DNA from: Escherichia coli
GTDB lineage: Bacteria; Pseudomonadota; Gammaproteobacteria; Enterobacterales; Enterobacteriaceae
Assembly (NCBI RefSeq): GCF_044324785.1
Contig: NZ_CP172127.1
Direction: 5' to 3' (one strand)
Length of the DNA stretch: 64,000 nucleotides
The translations under genes and the position numbers were made by a program. Below are positions 13,570-33,462 of the stretch, piece after piece. Position 1 is the stretch's first letter. Every line of letters starts with the position of its first letter. The notes under the pieces were generated by a model. That model had not been told where the DNA came from. It was given only the letters and a program-made list of their open reading frames with translations, and searched no databases.

Positions 13570-13815
13570 ATGACCGATCTCTTTTCCAGCCCTGACCACA
13601 CACTCGACGCACTTGGCCTGCGCTGCCCGGAACCAGTAATGATGGTGCGCAAAACAGTGCGCAATATGCAGCCAGGTGAAACGTTGCTGATTATTGCTGA
13701 CGATCCGGCGACGACCCGCGATATTCCTGGGTTTTGTACCTTTATGGAACACGAACTGGTTGCTAAAGAGACGGATGGACTGCCTTATCGTTATTTGATT
13801 CGTAAAGGCGGTTGA
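13570..13815 (+). CDS. tusA: Sulfur-carrier protein TusA
   Basis: 81 aa containing the conserved CPEP motif ([12 protein letters not shown]). Confidence 0.92.
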
Positions 13816-13844
13816 TGGGGGAAGATTGGCTTCGATGCCGCCTT

Positions 13845-13883
13845 TTCCCCTCACCCTAACCCTCTCCCCAGAGGAGCGAGGGG
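13845..13883. repeat. GC-rich intergenic repeat, partial copy of the family seen at 32405..32551
   Basis: CCCCTCACCCTAACCCTCTCCCC...GAGGGGACCGATCG is shared almost base-for-base with the ugpB-ugpA intergenic element. Confidence 0.5.
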
Positions 13884-13911
13884 ACCGATCGCGCTCAATG
13901 TTGCGATCGGT
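13884..13911. terminator. Hairpin between convergent tusA and zntA
   Basis: ACCGATCGC / GCGATCGGT 9-bp inverted repeat with a 10-nt loop, lying between the two convergent stop codons. Confidence 0.45.
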
Positions 13912-13916
13912 TTGCC

Positions 13917-16115
13917 TTATCTCCTGCGCAACAATCTTAACGCATTCGCTGTCACCAGCACCGTCGCACCCGTATCTGCCAGCACTGCCAGCCACAGTCC
14001 GGTCATCCCTAACAGCGTGGTGACGAGGAAGATCCCTTTCAGTCCCAGCGCAATGGTGATGTTCTGGCGGATATTGGCGTGAGTGGCGCGTGCCAGTTCA
14101 ATCATTTGCACCAGGCCGCGCAGGTGGTTATGGGTTAATGCTGCATCGGCGGTTTCCAGCGCCACGTCTGTGCCACTGCCCATTGCAATCCCGATGGCGG
14201 CGGCTTTCATCGCTGGCGCGTCGTTAATACCGTCACCGACCATCGCCAGCGGCGCATGTTGATTCAGCTCGGTCACCGCTTTGACTTTATCTTCCGGCAA
14301 CAGGCCCGCTTTAAACTCCAGCCCCAACTCTCCGGCAATTGCCGCCGCTGCGCGTGGATTATCGCCGGTGAGGATCACCCCTTTGACGCCCAGCGCGTTC
14401 AGTTCACTGATGGCAGTTGCAGCATCGGCGCGTAGGGTATCCTGCAATGCAATTACGCCAAGCACGTCATCGTTACGCACTACCAGCACTACCGTTTGCC
14501 CGGCGCTTTCCAGTTCATTAATCAAACCAGCAAATGCAACAGCCGGATGTTTTCCGGCAGCGCATATCAACACGCGCTCACCGTTAACCTGCGCTTCAAT
14601 GCCAGACCCGACCAGCGCCCGCTGTGATTCGGCGGCGGGAATGGCGAGTTCAGCAACCTGTGCTTCGCGTACGATGGCTTGCGCCAGTGGATGCGTCGCG
14701 CCTTGCTCGACCGCCGCCGCCAGTGTCAGCAGTTCAGATTCACTAATACCCGTTGCCGGATGAATCGCGGTAACGCGCGGTTTACCGACGGTCAGCGTAC
14801 CGGTTTTATCAAACGCCACCTGGGTAACACGACCCAGTTGTTCCAGCGCCGCACCGCCTTTAATCAACGCCCCACGACGCGCTGCTGCCGCCAGCCCGGA
14901 GGTAATCGCCGCGGGCGTGGAGATAACTAACGCACACGGGCAGCCAATCAGCAGCAGCGTCAGGCCTTTATAAATCCACTCTTGCCAGCTGGCGGCAAAC
15001 AGCAGCGGTGGCACCAGCGTTACCAGCAGGGCGACGGCCATAATCGCTGGCGTGTAAATACGGCTGAAACGATCGATAAACCTCTCAATGGGGGCGCGAC
15101 GCTCTTCGGCTTCTTCGATCAGTTTCAGAATCCGGTCAATGGCGCTGGCACCCGGTTCTGACAGCACTTCCAGCGTTACCAGACGGTCTACGCTGGTGGC
15201 TCCTGCAGGAACTTTTTCGCCCGTCGCGCGCTCCACAGGAATGGATTCTCCGGTCAGGGCGCTTTCATCAAAACTGGCAAACGGTGAGAGCAGTTTACCG
15301 TCGGCAGGCAAACGTCCACCTGCGGCGACTTCAATCACATCGCCAGGGCGCAGGCTGTTAATCGCCACCTCTTCACGCTCACCGTTACGCAGGCGCGTGG
15401 CGGTTTCTGGTTTCAGCGCCATTAACGCGCTAACGCCCTGACGCGCGCGGCTGGCGGCCCAGCCTTCCAGTCGTTCACCAATCAAAAACAGCAGCAACAC
15501 CATCGCAGCTTCAGCCGTTGCGCCAATAAACAGTGCACCAATAGCGGCTACGCTCATTAAGGTTTCAATAGCGAAGTAGCTGCCGGATTTGATCAGCCGT
15601 AATGCCTGACGAGCAATCGGGTACAGCCCAACCAGCGTGGTCGCGATAAACGCCAGTTGCCCGAACGGATGATTAAACTGTTCCAGCCCCCAACTGATTG
15701 CCATCAACACGATTAGCGTAATCAGCGGCAAATTCTCTTTCAGGCGTGATGCTTGCGGTTCGTCGGCGGACTGTTCATCGCGCAGGGAATAGCCCGCTTT
15801 TTGCACCGCAGATTCAACTTGTGCACGAATGTCATTGTCGGCATCGACCACCAGTTTTTCGGTGGCGAACAACACCTGCACCTGATTCACGCCTGCAAGC
15901 TGGCGCACGGCATTTTCTACCTTGCGCGCGCAGGCGGCGCAGTCCATGCCGCTGACTTTCCAGCTATAGCGGGTGCCGGAGACGTTTTCAGAGAGCGTTG
16001 GCGTGCTGGAACATGCGCCGTCGCAGCAACAGTCGTTGGTGTTCTGTACCGTAGTTAGCGGTTTGAACGCAGCAAATTGAGGGGCTTTCTTGCCGTGATT
16101 GTCAGGAGTCGACAT
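13917..16115 (-). CDS. zntA: Zn/Cd/Pb-exporting P1B-type ATPase
   Basis: 732 aa with N-terminal metal-binding GMDCAAC, the CPC transmembrane motif, DKTGTLT phosphorylation site and GDGINDAPA hinge. Confidence 0.95.
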   Translation of the reverse strand: MSTPDNHGKKAPQFAAFKPLTTVQNTNDCCCDGACSSTPTLSENVSGTRYSWKVSGMDCAACARKVENAVRQLAGVNQVQVLFATEKLVVDADNDIRAQVESAVQKAGYSLRDEQSADEPQASRLKENLPLITLIVLMAISWGLEQFNHPFGQLAFIATTLVGLYPIARQALRLIKSGSYFAIETLMSVAAIGALFIGATAEAAMVLLLFLIGERLEGWAASRARQGVSALMALKPETATRLRNGEREEVAINSLRPGDVIEVAAGGRLPADGKLLSPFASFDESALTGESIPVERATGEKVPAGATSVDRLVTLEVLSEPGASAIDRILKLIEEAEERRAPIERFIDRFSRIYTPAIMAVALLVTLVPPLLFAASWQEWIYKGLTLLLIGCPCALVISTPAAITSGLAAAARRGALIKGGAALEQLGRVTQVAFDKTGTLTVGKPRVTAIHPATGISESELLTLAAAVEQGATHPLAQAIVREAQVAELAIPAAESQRALVGSGIEAQVNGERVLICAAGKHPAVAFAGLINELESAGQTVVLVVRNDDVLGVIALQDTLRADAATAISELNALGVKGVILTGDNPRAAAAIAGELGLEFKAGLLPEDKVKAVTELNQHAPLAMVGDGINDAPAMKAAAIGIAMGSGTDVALETADAALTHNHLRGLVQMIELARATHANIRQNITIALGLKGIFLVTTLLGMTGLWLAVLADTGATVLVTANALRLLRRR

Positions 16116-28379: not shown

Positions 28380-29143
28380 GTCAGCCATTATTATCTGTTA
28401 ACGGTCTGATGATGCGCTTCGGCGGCCTGCTGGCGGTGAACAACGTCAATCTTGAACTGTACCCGCAGGAGATCGTGTCGTTAATCGGCCCTAACGGTGC
28501 CGGAAAAACCACGGTCTTCAACTGCCTGACCGGATTCTATAAACCCACCGGCGGCACCATTTTACTGCGCGATCAGCATCTGGAAGGTTTGCCGGGGCAG
28601 CAAATTGCCCGCATGGGCGTGGTGCGAACCTTCCAGCATGTGCGTCTGTTCCGTGAAATGACGGTGATTGAAAACCTGCTGGTGGCGCAGCATCAGCAAC
28701 TGAAAACCGGGCTGTTCTCTGGCCTGTTGAAAACGCCTTCTTTCCGTCGCGCCCAGAGCGAAGCGCTCGACCGCGCCGCCACCTGGCTTGAGCGCATTGG
28801 TTTGCTGGAACACGCCAACCGTCAGGCGAGTAACCTGGCCTATGGTGACCAACGCCGTCTGGAGATTGCCCGTTGCATGGTGACGCAGCCGGAGATTTTA
28901 ATGCTCGACGAACCGGCGGCAGGTCTTAATCCGAAAGAGACGAAAGAGCTGGATGAGCTGATTGCCGAACTGCGTAACCATCACAACACCACTATCTTGT
29001 TGATTGAACATGATATGAAGCTGGTGATGGGGATTTCAGACAGAATCTACGTGGTCAATCAGGGGACGCCGCTGGCAAACGGTACGCCGGAGCAAATCCG
29101 TAATAACCCGGACGTGATCCGTGCCTATTTAGGTGAGGCATAA
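28376..29143 (+). CDS. livG: Branched-chain amino-acid ABC ATPase LivG
   Basis: 255 aa with Walker A (GPNGAGKTT). Confidence 0.93.
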
Positions 29144-29858: not shown

Positions 29859-29867
29859 ATTATCGAT

Positions 29868-29906
29868 AACCCGGCAGCCACGTTCTGCCGGGTTATTCGT
29901 CCGTTT
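29868..29906 (+). terminator. livF intrinsic terminator
   Basis: AACCCGGCAG / CTGCCGGGTT 10-bp stem with a 7-nt loop, followed by a moderately T-rich tail. Confidence 0.6.
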
Positions 29907-29976
29907 ACAGACTTGTTTCGACTGACCGGGAGGATTAAAACCAGACCACTTATTTGCCACGGAAAGGTTCCCTCCC

Positions 29977-30723
29977 ATGCATTATGCCGTTGTCGTCATG
30001 CTTGAACTGCTTTGCTGTATTCACGCTTATCGCTCCGGACAAGAGCGATACTGGATTTTTATTATCTTCTGTTTTCCGGTGATTGGCTGCGTGGCGTATT
30101 TCGTCATGGTTATGCTGCCTGAAACGGGCGCTGACCGTCACGGGCGTACTTTGCTGATGCGCCTGCAGGACAAAATCAGCCCGGAACGCCACCTGCACAA
30201 ATTAACCGAAGAGCTGGCGATTGCCGAGACCAATCAAAACCATTATGCGTTAGCTAACGAACTGGCGCGCCTTGGGCGTTATCACGAAGCCGTTCCCCAT
30301 TATCAGCAGGCGTTAAGCGGAATTTTCGCCCATGAAGCGGTAATGATGTTAAGCCTGGCGCAGGCGCAATTTGCTATTCAGGAGTTCGCCGCCTGTCAGC
30401 AGACGCTGGAAGATGTGATGCGTTATAACCCCGATTTTCAGTCGGCAGACGGGCATTTGTTATTTGCCAGAGCGTTAGCCGCACAAGAAGAATACGCTGA
30501 TGCGGAAAGTGAGTTTGAAGTGTTGGTTTCTTATTACCCCGGCCCGCAGGCGCGTATTTACTATGCGGAAATGCTGGCGAAAATGAGTCGGTTACGTGAA
30601 GCCAACGAGCAGTATGTTGCTGTGGTTGATACGGCTAAACGCTCAAGAGCGCATTATAGAAAACACTACCGGGAATGGATTAAGACCGCCAATGAACGGT
30701 TGAAGCAGAGTGTGGTGCAATGA
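29977..30723 (+). CDS. Hypothetical membrane protein: N-terminal two-TM domain resembling the PLD/cardiolipin-synthase N-terminal domain, plus a C-terminal TPR-like helical domain
   Basis: 248-aa ORF with two hydrophobic helices and a W...FP.IG...Y pattern (WIFIIFCFPVIGCVAYFV), followed by alanine-rich repeats with TPR-like periodicity. I do not recall a gene between livF and ugpB in K-12. Confidence 0.6.
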   Translation: MHYAVVVMLELLCCIHAYRSGQERYWIFIIFCFPVIGCVAYFVMVMLPETGADRHGRTLLMRLQDKISPERHLHKLTEELAIAETNQNHYALANELARLGRYHEAVPHYQQALSGIFAHEAVMMLSLAQAQFAIQEFAACQQTLEDVMRYNPDFQSADGHLLFARALAAQEEYADAESEFEVLVSYYPGPQARIYYAEMLAKMSRLREANEQYVAVVDTAKRSRAHYRKHYREWIKTANERLKQSVVQ

Positions 30724-30793
30724 AAATCTTCTTTGCCGTTAGACAAGTGTCGCGGCAATCTTTTGTTAAAATTGAAAAATGTAGCTCTCATCG

Positions 30794-30837
30794 GGCAGCA
30801 AAACTGGACGCAGAATTTGCTGCCATTTTTGCTCTTC
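30794..30837 (+). terminator. Intrinsic terminator after the 248-aa ORF
   Basis: GGCAGCAAA / TTTGCTGCC 9-bp stem with a 13-nt loop, followed by ATTTTTGCTCTTC. Confidence 0.5.
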
Positions 30838-30946
30838 ATGGTAAGGAGTTCTGGCGATTAGCTGGCCGTTAATCGCCTCTTTTCAGTGCATTCTCGGGAT
30901 ATCCGTGCCCCATCTCCCATTTTCCCTCACCCGTACCGTCACCGCC

Positions 30947-31082: not shown

Positions 31083-32399
31083 ATGAAACCGTTACATTAT
31101 ACAGCTTCAGCACTGGCGCTCGGACTGGCGTTAATGGGGAATGCACAGGCAGTGACGACCATTCCGTTCTGGCATTCTATGGAAGGGGAACTGGGTAAAG
31201 AGGTGGATTCTCTGGCCCAACGTTTTAACGCCGAAAACCCGGATTACAAAATTGTACCGACCTATAAAGGCAACTACGAACAGAATTTAAGCGCGGGGAT
31301 TGCCGCATTTCGTACCGGCAACGCGCCGGCTATTTTGCAGGTTTATGAAGTTGGCACCGCCACCATGATGGCGTCTAAGGCCATTAAACCGGTATATGAC
31401 GTGTTTAAAGAGGCGGGGATTCAATTCGATGAGTCGCAGTTTGTGCCGACGGTTTCAGGTTACTACTCCGACAGCAAAACCGGCCACTTACTCTCCCAGC
31501 CGTTCAACAGCTCGACTCCCGTTCTCTATTACAACAAAGACGCCTTCAAGAAAGCTGGGCTAGACCCGGAACAGCCGCCGAAAACCTGGCAGGATCTGGC
31601 GGACTATGCCGCAAAACTGAAAGCCTCCGGCATGAAGTGCGGCTACGCCAGCGGCTGGCAGGGCTGGATCCAACTGGAAAACTTTAGCGCCTGGAACGGT
31701 CTGCCGTTTGCCAGCAAAAACAACGGCTTTGACGGCACGGACGCGGTGCTGGAGTTCAACAAGCCGGAGCAGGTGAAACACATCGCCATGCTCGAAGAGA
31801 TGAACAAGAAGGGCGACTTCAGCTACGTCGGTCGTAAGGATGAATCCACCGAGAAGTTCTATAACGGTGATTGCGCGATGACCACCGCCTCTTCCGGTTC
31901 GCTTGCCAACATTCGCGAGTACGCCAAATTTAACTATGGCGTAGGCATGATGCCTTACGACGCCGATGCGAAAGATGCGCCACAAAACGCCATTATCGGC
32001 GGAGCCAGCCTGTGGGTGATGCAGGGTAAAGATAAAGAAACGTATACCGGTGTGGCGAAGTTCCTCGACTTCCTCGCGAAGCCAGAAAACGCTGCCGAGT
32101 GGCATCAGAAAACTGGTTATCTGCCAATCACCAAAGCGGCGTATGACCTGACCCGTGAGCAGGGTTTTTATGAGAAAAACCCAGGGGCGGATACCGCGAC
32201 GCGTCAGATGCTGAATAAGCCGCCGTTACCGTTCACCAAAGGGCTGCGTCTGGGCAACATGCCGCAGATCCGCGTGATTGTGGATGAAGAGCTGGAGAGC
32301 GTGTGGACCGGTAAGAAGACACCACAGCAGGCACTGGATACCGCCGTTGAGCGTGGGAACCAGTTACTGCGCCGCTTTGAGAAATCGACGAAGTCTTAA
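31083..32399 (+). CDS. ugpB: Periplasmic sn-glycerol-3-phosphate-binding protein UgpB
   Basis: 438 aa with signal peptide ([23 protein letters not shown]). Confidence 0.95.
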
Positions 32400-32404
32400 T
32401 TCTC

Positions 32405-32551
32405 TTACCCTCACCCTAACCCTCTCCCAAAGGGAGAGGGGACCGATCGGCGTGGTATCCAGGTGCCGTGTCGGTTTGCAACTTCGCTCGGTGGGAAAGT
32501 ATGCACCGCCTTTCTCCCTCGCCCCTCTGGGGAGAGGGCCGGGGTGAGGGG
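32405..32551. repeat. Long GC-rich palindromic intergenic repeat between ugpB and ugpA
   Basis: Arm CCCTCACCCTAACCCTCTCCC (32408..32428) pairs with inverted GGGAGAGGGCCGGGGTGAGGG near 32530..32550; each arm also holds a local hairpin (CCCTCTCCC-AAA-GGGAGAGGG). A partial copy lies at 13845..13883. Confidence 0.55.
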
Positions 32552-32574
32552 AACACAACACGAAGAGTTTAACT

Positions 32575-33462
32575 ATGTCATCATCCCGTCCGGTGTTCCG
32601 CTCGCGCTGGCTGCCTTACCTGCTGGTCGCGCCGCAGCTCATCATCACCGTTATCTTTTTTATCTGGCCTGCGGGCGAAGCGTTGTGGTACTCGCTACAA
32701 AGCGTCGATCCATTTGGTTTCTCCAGCCAGTTTGTCGGTCTGGATAACTTCGTCGCGCTGTTTCATGACAGCTACTATCTCGACTCCTTCTGGACGACGA
32801 TAAAATTCAGCACCTTTGTCACCGTCAGCGGTTTGCTGGTATCGCTGTTCTTTGCGGCTCTGGTGGAGTACATCGTGCGCGGCAGCCGTTTCTATCAAAC
32901 CTTGATGCTGCTGCCGTATGCCGTGGCTCCCGCCGTTGCCGCCGTATTATGGATCTTCCTGTTTAACCCCGGTCGCGGGTTGATCACCCATTTTCTCGCT
33001 GAGTTCGGCTACGACTGGAACCATGCGCAAAACAGCGGTCAGGCGATGTTCCTGGTGGTGTTTGCCTCGGTGTGGAAGCAAATTAGCTACAACTTCCTGT
33101 TCTTCTATGCCGCGCTGCAATCCATTCCCCGCTCGTTGATCGAAGCCGCAGCCATCGACGGTGCAGGCCCGATTCGCCGCTTCTTTAAGATTGCGCTGCC
33201 GCTTATCGCTCCGGTGAGTTTCTTCCTGCTGGTGGTGAACCTGGTATACGCCTTCTTCGACACCTTCCCGGTGATCGACGCCGCCACGTCCGGCGGGCCG
33301 GTTCAGGCCACCACGACGCTGATTTATAAGATTTACCGCGAAGGCTTTACCGGACTGGATCTGGCTTCGTCTGCCGCGCAGTCGGTGGTGTTGATGTTCC
33401 TCGTCATCGTGCTGACGGTGGTGCAGTTCCGCTATGTTGAAAGCAAGGTGCGTTACCAATGA
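32575..33462 (+). CDS. ugpA: sn-Glycerol-3-phosphate ABC permease UgpA
   Basis: 295-aa permease; 4-bp overlap with ugpE. Confidence 0.93.

Follow-up and report, generated by a model that had tools for sequence, protein, structure and literature searches.

An inverted pair of BoxC repeats in the ugpB-ugpA spacer of Escherichia coli and its alternation with a REP palindrome

The ugpB-ugpA locus

We have analyzed the junction between the ugpB and ugpA genes in a 64,000-nucleotide stretch of Escherichia coli DNA, the whole of which is referred to here as the window. In the open reading frame listing, the gene for the periplasmic sn-glycerol-3-phosphate binding protein, ugpB, occupies positions 31083..32399 on the plus strand and ends with a stop codon at 32397-32399. 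The permease gene ugpA follows on the same strand (32575..33462), with its ATG at 32575. Both names were assigned by colinearity with the annotated locus of E. coli CFSAN018748, which is 97% identical. The intercistronic spacer between these genes (32400..32574, plus strand) is 175 bp long and will be called the BoxC allele. Most of this spacer is taken up by a nested GC-rich palindrome at 32405-32551, which had been described in the original prediction, and the sequence is as described there. Its inverted arms (32400-32441 and 32517-32558) are 42 nt long and 71% complementary. The smaller hairpin that had been claimed within each arm is present as well, in the left arm as a perfect 9-bp stem (CCCTCTCCC aaa GGGAGAGGG, 32420-32440) and in the right arm in an imperfect form.

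Between the arms lies a locus-specific core of 75 nt (32441..32515, plus strand), with a local hairpin of its own, CCGATCGGCG...CGTGTCGG, at 32443-32474. The first ~20 nt of the core (GACCGATCGGCG..GTAT) are a conserved extension of the BoxC repeat that is also found in the lldD-trmL pair of E. coli K-12 and in the tusA-zntA copy described below. On the ugpA side, a putative ribosome-binding region (32562..32577, plus strand) was read from the sequence as GAAGAG at 32562-32567 followed by the ATG at 32575; it lies outside the main predicted hairpin, about 10 nt 3' of the hairpin base. The tail of the spacer, AGAGTTTAACT, is also kept in the BoxC-type spacer of Kluyvera.

The surroundings of the locus were compared with other E. 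coli genomes. Of 5,426 complete E. coli genomes, none exceeds 98.0% identity to the window over its first 25 kb (1-25000), and the lineage of the window is therefore not represented among the complete RefSeq genomes of this species. In the segment 29400-35600 identity is about 97% in the ugp genes and the synteny is E. coli-like. The livF-ugpB interval of the window contains about 830 bp of extra sequence (29859-30900) absent from E. coli CFSAN018748. An ORF within it (29977-30723, plus strand) encodes a predicted TPR-repeat protein of 248 amino acids (Pfam TPR_19, E = 7e-9; TPR_2, E = 1e-6), the N-terminus of which bears a weak PLDc_N-like match at 23.0 bits, just under the cut-off of 23.3. 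This accessory gene is located directly upstream of the ugp promoter region.

Two BoxC units around a unique core

The name BoxC reportedly goes back to Bergler (1992) and Bachellier (1996), and that of the PIT elements to Hoyne & Maher (2000). The repeats were later published again under two further names, PIT ('potential intrastrand triplex') elements and, subsequently, TMECO motifs (Holder et al. 2015, PMC4666352). Two types are set by the second loop, which is TTA in type A and CCG in type B (PMC4666352). K-12 carries 23 units at 18 loci, and inverted pairs are found at five loci, invariably a type A with a type B (Holder et al., PMC4666352).

Both arms of the ugp palindrome match the consensus CCCTCNCCC-N3-6-GGGNGAGGG-N3-GGGNGAGGG exactly in a regex scan. 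The left arm contains a type A unit (32408..32440, minus strand; second loop TTA) that is an exact match to the published TMECO regex and reads CCCTCTCCC TTT GGGAGAGGG TTA GGGTGAGGG on the minus strand; in the mRNA this unit forms the C-rich left arm and contains the perfect 9-bp hairpin at 32420-32440. The right arm contains a type B unit with one mismatch (32516..32550, plus strand; second loop CCG), again an exact regex match, which reads CCCTCGCCCC TCT GGGGAGAGGG CCG GGGTGAGGG; this arm is identical to K-12 TMECO #3 and #18 at 35 of 36 positions. The ugp element thus obeys the A + B rule, with TTA on the left and CCG on the right, on opposite strands. From these sequence matches we regard it as near certain that the ugp palindrome consists of two inverted BoxC units, one of type A and one of type B, around the 75-nt locus-specific core. 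The original prediction had placed the element in a known family of enterobacterial intergenic repeats and had proposed four families for checking. BoxC is one of these four; the family is known, and ugp is a new locus for it.

The repeated nature of the arms is evident within the window and in complete genomes. A 21-mer of the left arm, CCCTCACCCTAACCCTCTCCC, for which zero chance matches are expected in the window, occurs exactly at 32408 and at 13848, and with 3 mismatches on the minus strand at 32530-32550. The window contains three BoxC units, all of them intergenic. By blastn, 5400 of 5426 complete E. coli genomes have BoxC matches, and the genome-wide copy count that had been suggested gives a median of 18 places per genome. 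The core, taken here as 83 nt, was on the other hand located nowhere but at ugp, as a single copy in each of 317 genomes. Therefore the element is a BoxC pair around a locus-specific sequence, and neither a repeated 147-bp unit nor a MITE; the earlier view of the 147 bp as one repeated element must be given up, as only the arms are repeated and the core is confined to ugp. About 56 nt (the unit plus GACCGnTCGGnG..GT) are common to the left unit of ugp, K-12 lldD-trmL and the tusA-zntA copy. This stretch was compared with BoxC by length only, and in length it agrees with the BoxC size of 56 bp given by Petrillo et al. (PMC2267715).

K-12 has a REP at the ugp position, and the locus is therefore absent from its list of 23 units. 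In the parts of the supplements of Holder et al. that were consulted, ugp was not found among the 63 loci, and the zntA-tusA and lldD-trmL entries were confirmed.

Other repeat families were rejected. The REP-stem pattern of REP/BIME elements (an imperfect palindrome of the GCCGGATG...CATCCGGC type, about 35-40 nt) is unmatched anywhere in the window; the REP motif is present in the ugp spacers of K-12, NCTC86 and E. albertii. For ERIC/IRU, the ERIC2 primer sequence AAGTAAGTGACTGGGGTGAGCG, which we take to be the conserved central inverted repeat of ERIC, is unmatched in the whole window at up to 3 mismatches. A MITE is suggested by the terminal inverted repeats, but the core is single-copy and no direct repeat or target-site duplication flanks the arms.

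BoxC units were also found on plasmids, at 11 places by megablast and 59 by blastn. The E. coli plasmid NZ_OW848983.1 carries a single type A unit (28817-28851), 35 nt of which are identical to the ugp left arm, between ISApu2 and ISApu1 and inside Tn3-family remnants. By contrast, the motif has been stated to have no association with plasmids or transposons (PMC4666352).

The copy between tusA and zntA

A partial copy had been noted at 13845..13883, between the convergent genes tusA (stop codon at 13813-13815) and zntA (stop codon at 13917-13919, minus strand). The copy is real, but the extent given for it was too short: homology to the left half of the ugp element covers about 72 nt (13845-13916), with 61 identical positions. 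It contains a single BoxC unit (13848..13882, minus strand) that is identical to K-12 TMECO #16 at 35 of 36 positions. According to the K-12 annotation and Holder's supplementary table, this unit is the orthologue of TMECO #16. The strict regex misses it because of one substitution, GGAGCGAGGG for GGGGCGAGGG. The copy has a second hairpin, ACCGATCG...CGATCGGT with TTGC after it, and includes the motif CGGTTTGC. The extension beyond the unit (13884..13916, plus strand), read as the hairpin ACCGATCGCG...GCGATCGGT and then TTGC, is homologous to ugp 32442-32479, and its stem stops at 13911, 5 nt from the zntA stop codon.

Predicted structure of the spacer

The BoxC spacer element is predicted to fold into a very stable RNA structure. 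Its minimum free energy (MFE) is -83.8 kcal/mol, compared to a mean of -62.5 for shuffled sequences (z = -4.84), and 0 of 200 shuffles folded as stably. Further copies and a stable structure, the two points on which the original prediction had offered itself for disproof, were thus both found. RNA from the opposite (minus) strand has an MFE of -82.9 (z -6.5), and the element as single-stranded DNA one of -41.3 (z -4.7). The predicted hairpin begins 8 nt past the ugpB stop codon and ends about 23 nt ahead of the ugpA ATG.

No terminator-like sites were found on either strand in 32200-32750 or in 13650-14100. The 3' flank of the hairpin is GAACACAACACG. Because it has no U-tract, an intrinsic terminator is unsupported, and the suggested 'attenuator' fails if it is understood in this sense. 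Likewise, no sigma-70 promoter pattern was found at the BoxC sites of ugp or tusA-zntA. An Rfam scan of the 64-kb window gave nothing at the BoxC element at or above the gathering threshold. The sole hit in the window was the RyhB small RNA (RF00057; 41733-41797, plus strand; 83 bits).

REP and BoxC alleles in E. coli

The 175-bp BoxC spacer is present in 317 of 5423 complete E. coli genomes, or about 6%. The other E. coli sampled have a 97-bp spacer that contains a REP palindrome and differs from the BoxC allele from the stop codon through the start codon, including the ribosome-binding tail (TTCAGGAAnnAAC versus AGAGTTTAACT in the BoxC type). The BoxC pair is a minority allele, and the REP/BIME palindrome the majority allele, of the same ugpB-ugpA site. 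For annotation, this means that about 6% of E. coli have a ugpB-ugpA spacer wholly unlike that of K-12, the ugpA ribosome-binding region included. The geometry of the two alleles is the same. In the K-12 REP allele the distance from the stop codon to the hairpin is 9 nt and that from the hairpin to the ATG 20 nt (MFE -49.4 kcal/mol, z -6.7), and in the BoxC pair allele of the window the corresponding distances are 8 nt and 23 nt (MFE -83.8 kcal/mol, z -4.8). This allelic alternation of REP and BoxC with conserved geometry is the one noteworthy addition of the present analysis. A literature search for the function of the ugpB-ugpA REP, or for later work on TMECO motifs, returned nothing relevant.

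Two E. coli records depart from this division. Strain N3 (NZ_CP031609.1) has a diverged BoxC spacer of 172 bp, with a core that is 88% identical and a different 5' end; a 5-nt deletion in the hairpin of the right arm makes the long palindrome more perfect (MFE -95.6). The existence of such a diverged version suggests a long history of the BoxC allele in E. coli. In SCPM-O-B-8794, a record that serves as a GTDB species representative, the spacer is of a third type, a 100-bp BIME that is like that of Citrobacter youngae and not like the 97-bp spacer of K-12. As identity to the window is only about 94.5% in the flanks, this record may belong to another Escherichia species.

Sequence constraint and history of the BoxC allele

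Sequence constraint was assessed in six hand-picked strains with the 175-bp allele. Segregating sites are about 6-fold rarer in the spacer (4/175) than at flanking third-codon positions (78/593; Fisher p = 6e-6), although the difference from all flanking coding sites (86/1780) is not significant (p = 0.18). Synonymous divergence (pS) in the flanks averages 0.093 among these strains, and the pairwise divergence of the spacer is 0.76%. The four spacer substitutions agree, or nearly agree, with the predicted fold: two keep G-U pairs, another falls within a loop and the last opens the closing pair of a loop. The spacer of the window is 100% identical to that of 240 genomes, with ugp genes about 3% diverged from those of the carrier strains, and the flanks of the carriers differ among themselves as much as they do from K-12.

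Several histories that could produce such a pattern were considered. The unique core is conserved too, and therefore concerted evolution of the repeats cannot explain the conservation; for the core, which has no other copies, this cause was rejected. A recent sweep or import with a hitch-hiking tract is unlikely, as carriers differ from one another again within the first 60 nt of either flank. A recent import of the spacer from another genus was also rejected, with E. coli-like coding flanks that are 96-98% identical to K-12 and whose identity to Kluyvera or Enterobacter (84-87%) is not above expectation. Overall, the evidence for constraint is supportive and not decisive, because the sample is small and intergenic DNA of E. 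coli is generally constrained.

Spacers across the Enterobacterales

A cross-species scan with one genome per species with UgpA yielded 80 loci. Both spacer types recur across genera of the Enterobacteriaceae. An A(-)/B(+) BoxC pair with a AGAGTTTAACT-like tail is found in Kluyvera, Pluralibacter, a Pseudocitrobacter MAG, Superficieibacter and E. cloacae, and Enterobacter BIGb0383 has a collapsed version of the BoxC pair. A REP pair with a TTCAGGAA tail is found in E. albertii, Citrobacter species, P. faecalis, P. vulneris and others. The more distant genera have plain hairpins at this junction, often with a T-run. The spacer types are scattered on the tree of the coding flanks, with both represented in E. 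coli and in Pseudocitrobacter, the latter with flanks that are 94.9% identical. Significant structure (z < -2 relative to shuffles) was predicted for the ugpB-ugpA spacers of 38 of 48 Enterobacterales species, with a median z of about -4; the remaining 10 spacers have no significant structure.

Two spacers are hybrids. In Leclercia adecarboxylata a BoxC-like unit is nested in the loop between two REPs, and in Enterobacteriaceae RIT691 a BoxC pair is followed by a REP-type ribosome-binding tail (TCAGGAAA). Judged by their arrangement, both look like intermediates of insertion or recombination between the spacer types. Polypurine/polypyrimidine units were also seen in genera beyond these. The junction of Rahnella inusitata has several copies of a unit of the CCCCTTC..GAAGGGGG-TTGGGGTGGG type, and that of Serratia silvae has a degenerate TMECO-like unit, CCCTCTCCC TGTA GGCGAGGG TTG GGATGAGGG. 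Triplex-capable hairpins at ugpB-ugpA may thus extend beyond the BoxC family proper.

A candidate compensatory change in the long outer stem was seen in Pluralibacter and RIT691, with CCCTCtCCC on the left and GGGaGAGGG on the right. It was set aside as proof of the stem and judged ambiguous, because a species-specific family consensus or triplex matching is equally possible, and because it may represent one event.

Possible roles of the BoxC pair

In the reading that we favour, the arms would pair on the Pho-induced ugpBAECQ transcript to form a very stable stem-loop with no U-tract, which would act as a barrier to the 3'-5' exonucleases PNPase and RNase II rather than as a terminator. These enzymes would attack after downstream Rho-dependent termination or endonucleolytic cleavage, so that the ugpB segment would outlive the permease segment and the binding protein would be made in excess. 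The REP and the BoxC pair would be interchangeable suppliers of this hairpin. There are precedents for the components of such a mechanism. Stable U-less stem-loops define the 3' ends of Rho-dependent E. coli mRNAs and protect them from PNPase and RNase II (PMC6061677), and a REP in the 3'UTR makes mRNA more stable and leads to higher expression of MalE (PMC4942690). By analogy with REPs, protection of the ugpB message is most likely what the BoxC stem-loop provides. The original proposal of an mRNA stabiliser or attenuator that sets the excess of UgpB is plausible on the same grounds, because a REP occupies the same place in most E. coli, because the spacer is structured in 38 of 48 species and because its sequence appears constrained. 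A role in RNA is also consistent with the retention of a hairpin at this junction through complete turnover of its sequence. The mechanism is weakened by published work, as single units were inactive in the tests reported and BoxC positions have no functional bias. According to Holder et al., who cite Hoyne & Maher, tests of single PIT/BoxC units revealed neither promoter nor terminator activity, and RNA polymerase was unaffected in vivo (PMC4666352); BoxC positions are uncorrelated with gene function, operon position or distance to ORFs (PMC4666352). Taking the identity as a BoxC A + B pair together with a U-less hairpin that shields the ugpB message from 3'-5' exonucleases, we assign this joint reading a probability of roughly 0.55.

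The rival that survives best, although we consider it unlikely, is that the pair is inert repeat DNA, made of selfish or recombination-prone BoxC units that persist in tolerant spacers. The alternation of REP and BoxC would then be an instance of 'intergenic change' instability, and the apparent constraint would reflect generic needs of a spacer, such as the ribosome-binding site and spacing, or sampling. Holder et al. found no functional correlates of BoxC, and observed 'intergenic changes' between E. coli strains at 39% of BoxC loci compared to <1% in controls (PMC4666352). The scatter of spacer types on the flank tree, including within E. coli and Pseudocitrobacter, fits this explanation, as do the nested unit of Leclercia and the REP-tailed pair of RIT691, which look like products of insertion or recombination. 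The lack of a significant deficit in spacer diversity relative to the flanking sites as a whole (p = 0.18) points the same way, and structured repeats may just pile up in tolerant spacers. Inert DNA is harder to reconcile with a non-repeated core that is conserved as much as the arms, with the roughly 6-fold deficit of diversity relative to third-codon positions, and with the shared geometry of REP and BoxC hairpins relative to the stop codon and ATG. It also accounts poorly for a structured spacer that is retained in 38 of 48 species despite complete sequence turnover.

Control at the level of translation is improbable. In one version the hairpin, which starts 8 nt past the ugpB stop codon and so within the footprint of the terminating ribosome, would slow termination or trigger rescue and lead to less UgpB; in another, the 3' base of the hairpin, about 10 nt from the ugpA Shine-Dalgarno sequence, would tune initiation at ugpA or block translational coupling. 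The positions of the stop codon end (32399), the stem start (32408) and the SD-like GAAGAG (32562-32567) allow for both, and BoxC-type and REP-type spacers each have their own conserved ribosome-binding tail. Liang, Rudd & Deutscher (2015) are said to have found that REPs within about 15 nt of a stop codon down-regulate the upstream gene, which would also count in favour. The ribosome-binding site, however, is not sequestered in the predicted fold, and translational control would be compatible with protection of the mRNA rather than exclusive of it.

A role at the level of DNA, in which the G-rich strand forms a purine-motif intrastrand triplex or the pair extrudes as a cruciform, with polymerase stalling, nucleoid-protein binding or local rearrangement as consequences, is the least probable of these explanations: in vivo DMS footprinting detected no triplex, the duplex form gave no triplex signal (PMC4666352), and such a role leaves unexplained both the REP, which has no triplex potential, at the same position with the same geometry and the plain hairpins of other genera. 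In its favour, CD and NMR show that oligonucleotides of type A, type B and their mismatch variants fold into stable intrastrand triplexes in vitro, and these oligonucleotides stop polymerase in primer extension (PMC4666352), and the units in the window differ from the tested types only in loop 1 (the right arm being compared with type B-mm). The folding of single-stranded DNA is significant as well (z -4.7), and the internal deletion in N3 yields a more perfect palindrome, resembling the published 'palindrome effect' (PMC4666352).

Returning to protection of the ugpB message, a more far-reaching form of this idea is that REP and BoxC are functionally interchangeable hairpin cassettes, maintained as a long-lived and possibly trans-species polymorphism, with selection acting on a strong stem-loop 8-9 nt past the stop codon and not on its sequence. 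We regard this as doubtful. If true, it would be the first RNA-level function for BoxC, despite the negative tests of single units, and the two natural alleles would be a ready-made experiment on how repeat families tune the stoichiometry of binding protein and permease. BoxC has been known since 1992, and in the published view it is a mere marker of unstable intergenic DNA. The alternation of REP and BoxC with matching geometry, both types being found again in other genera, offers a clean natural comparison of the two kinds of hairpin, one that would bear on the protection of upstream messages and on subunit stoichiometry in ABC importers.

Comparison with known systems

The ugp element resembles other members of the BoxC/TMECO family in the exact consensus of both arms, the inverted pairing of A with B, the intergenic location and its dispersed, multi-copy units. 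It differs from the K-12 BoxC pairs in its greater length (147 bp compared to 85-129 bp), its unique 75-nt core and its position within an operon, immediately after the binding-protein gene. The closest K-12 analogue is the lldD-trmL pair (TMECO #17 + #18). It has the same 'divergent' layout, with a type A unit on the minus strand, then a type B-mm unit on the plus strand, and the GGGTGAGGG blocks outermost. The two loci have in common the ~56-nt left unit, which includes GGGGACCGnTCGGCG..GTAT, and a right unit with a GGGGAA end. The lldD-trmL pair begins 11 nt past the upstream stop codon and, in Holder's supplement, is annotated 3' of the lldPRD operon. Its core is unrelated in sequence to that of ugp, and it measures 129 bp versus 147 bp.

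With MITEs such as ERIC/IRU the element shares a size of <200 bp, terminal inverted repeats, an intergenic site and a long RNA hairpin; it differs in that the full-length ugp unit is single-copy and has no known transposase. The likeness to the U-less stem-loops of Rho-dependent 3' ends lies in a stable, GC-rich structure with no U-tract immediately 3' of a coding region. Those stem-loops, however, are mapped 3' ends, whereas the ugp hairpin is predicted, much larger (147 nt) and internal to an operon.

A further parallel is the REP/BIME of the ugp spacer in K-12 and most E. coli. The two sequences are unrelated, REP being of the GCCGGATG type and BoxC polypurine/polypyrimidine, and stabilisation of mRNA is experimentally established for REP, whereas for BoxC we infer it. 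Both occupy the same site with the same geometry and provide a strong U-less hairpin, and REP, for example at malE-malF, is likewise placed after the periplasmic binding-protein gene of an ABC importer.
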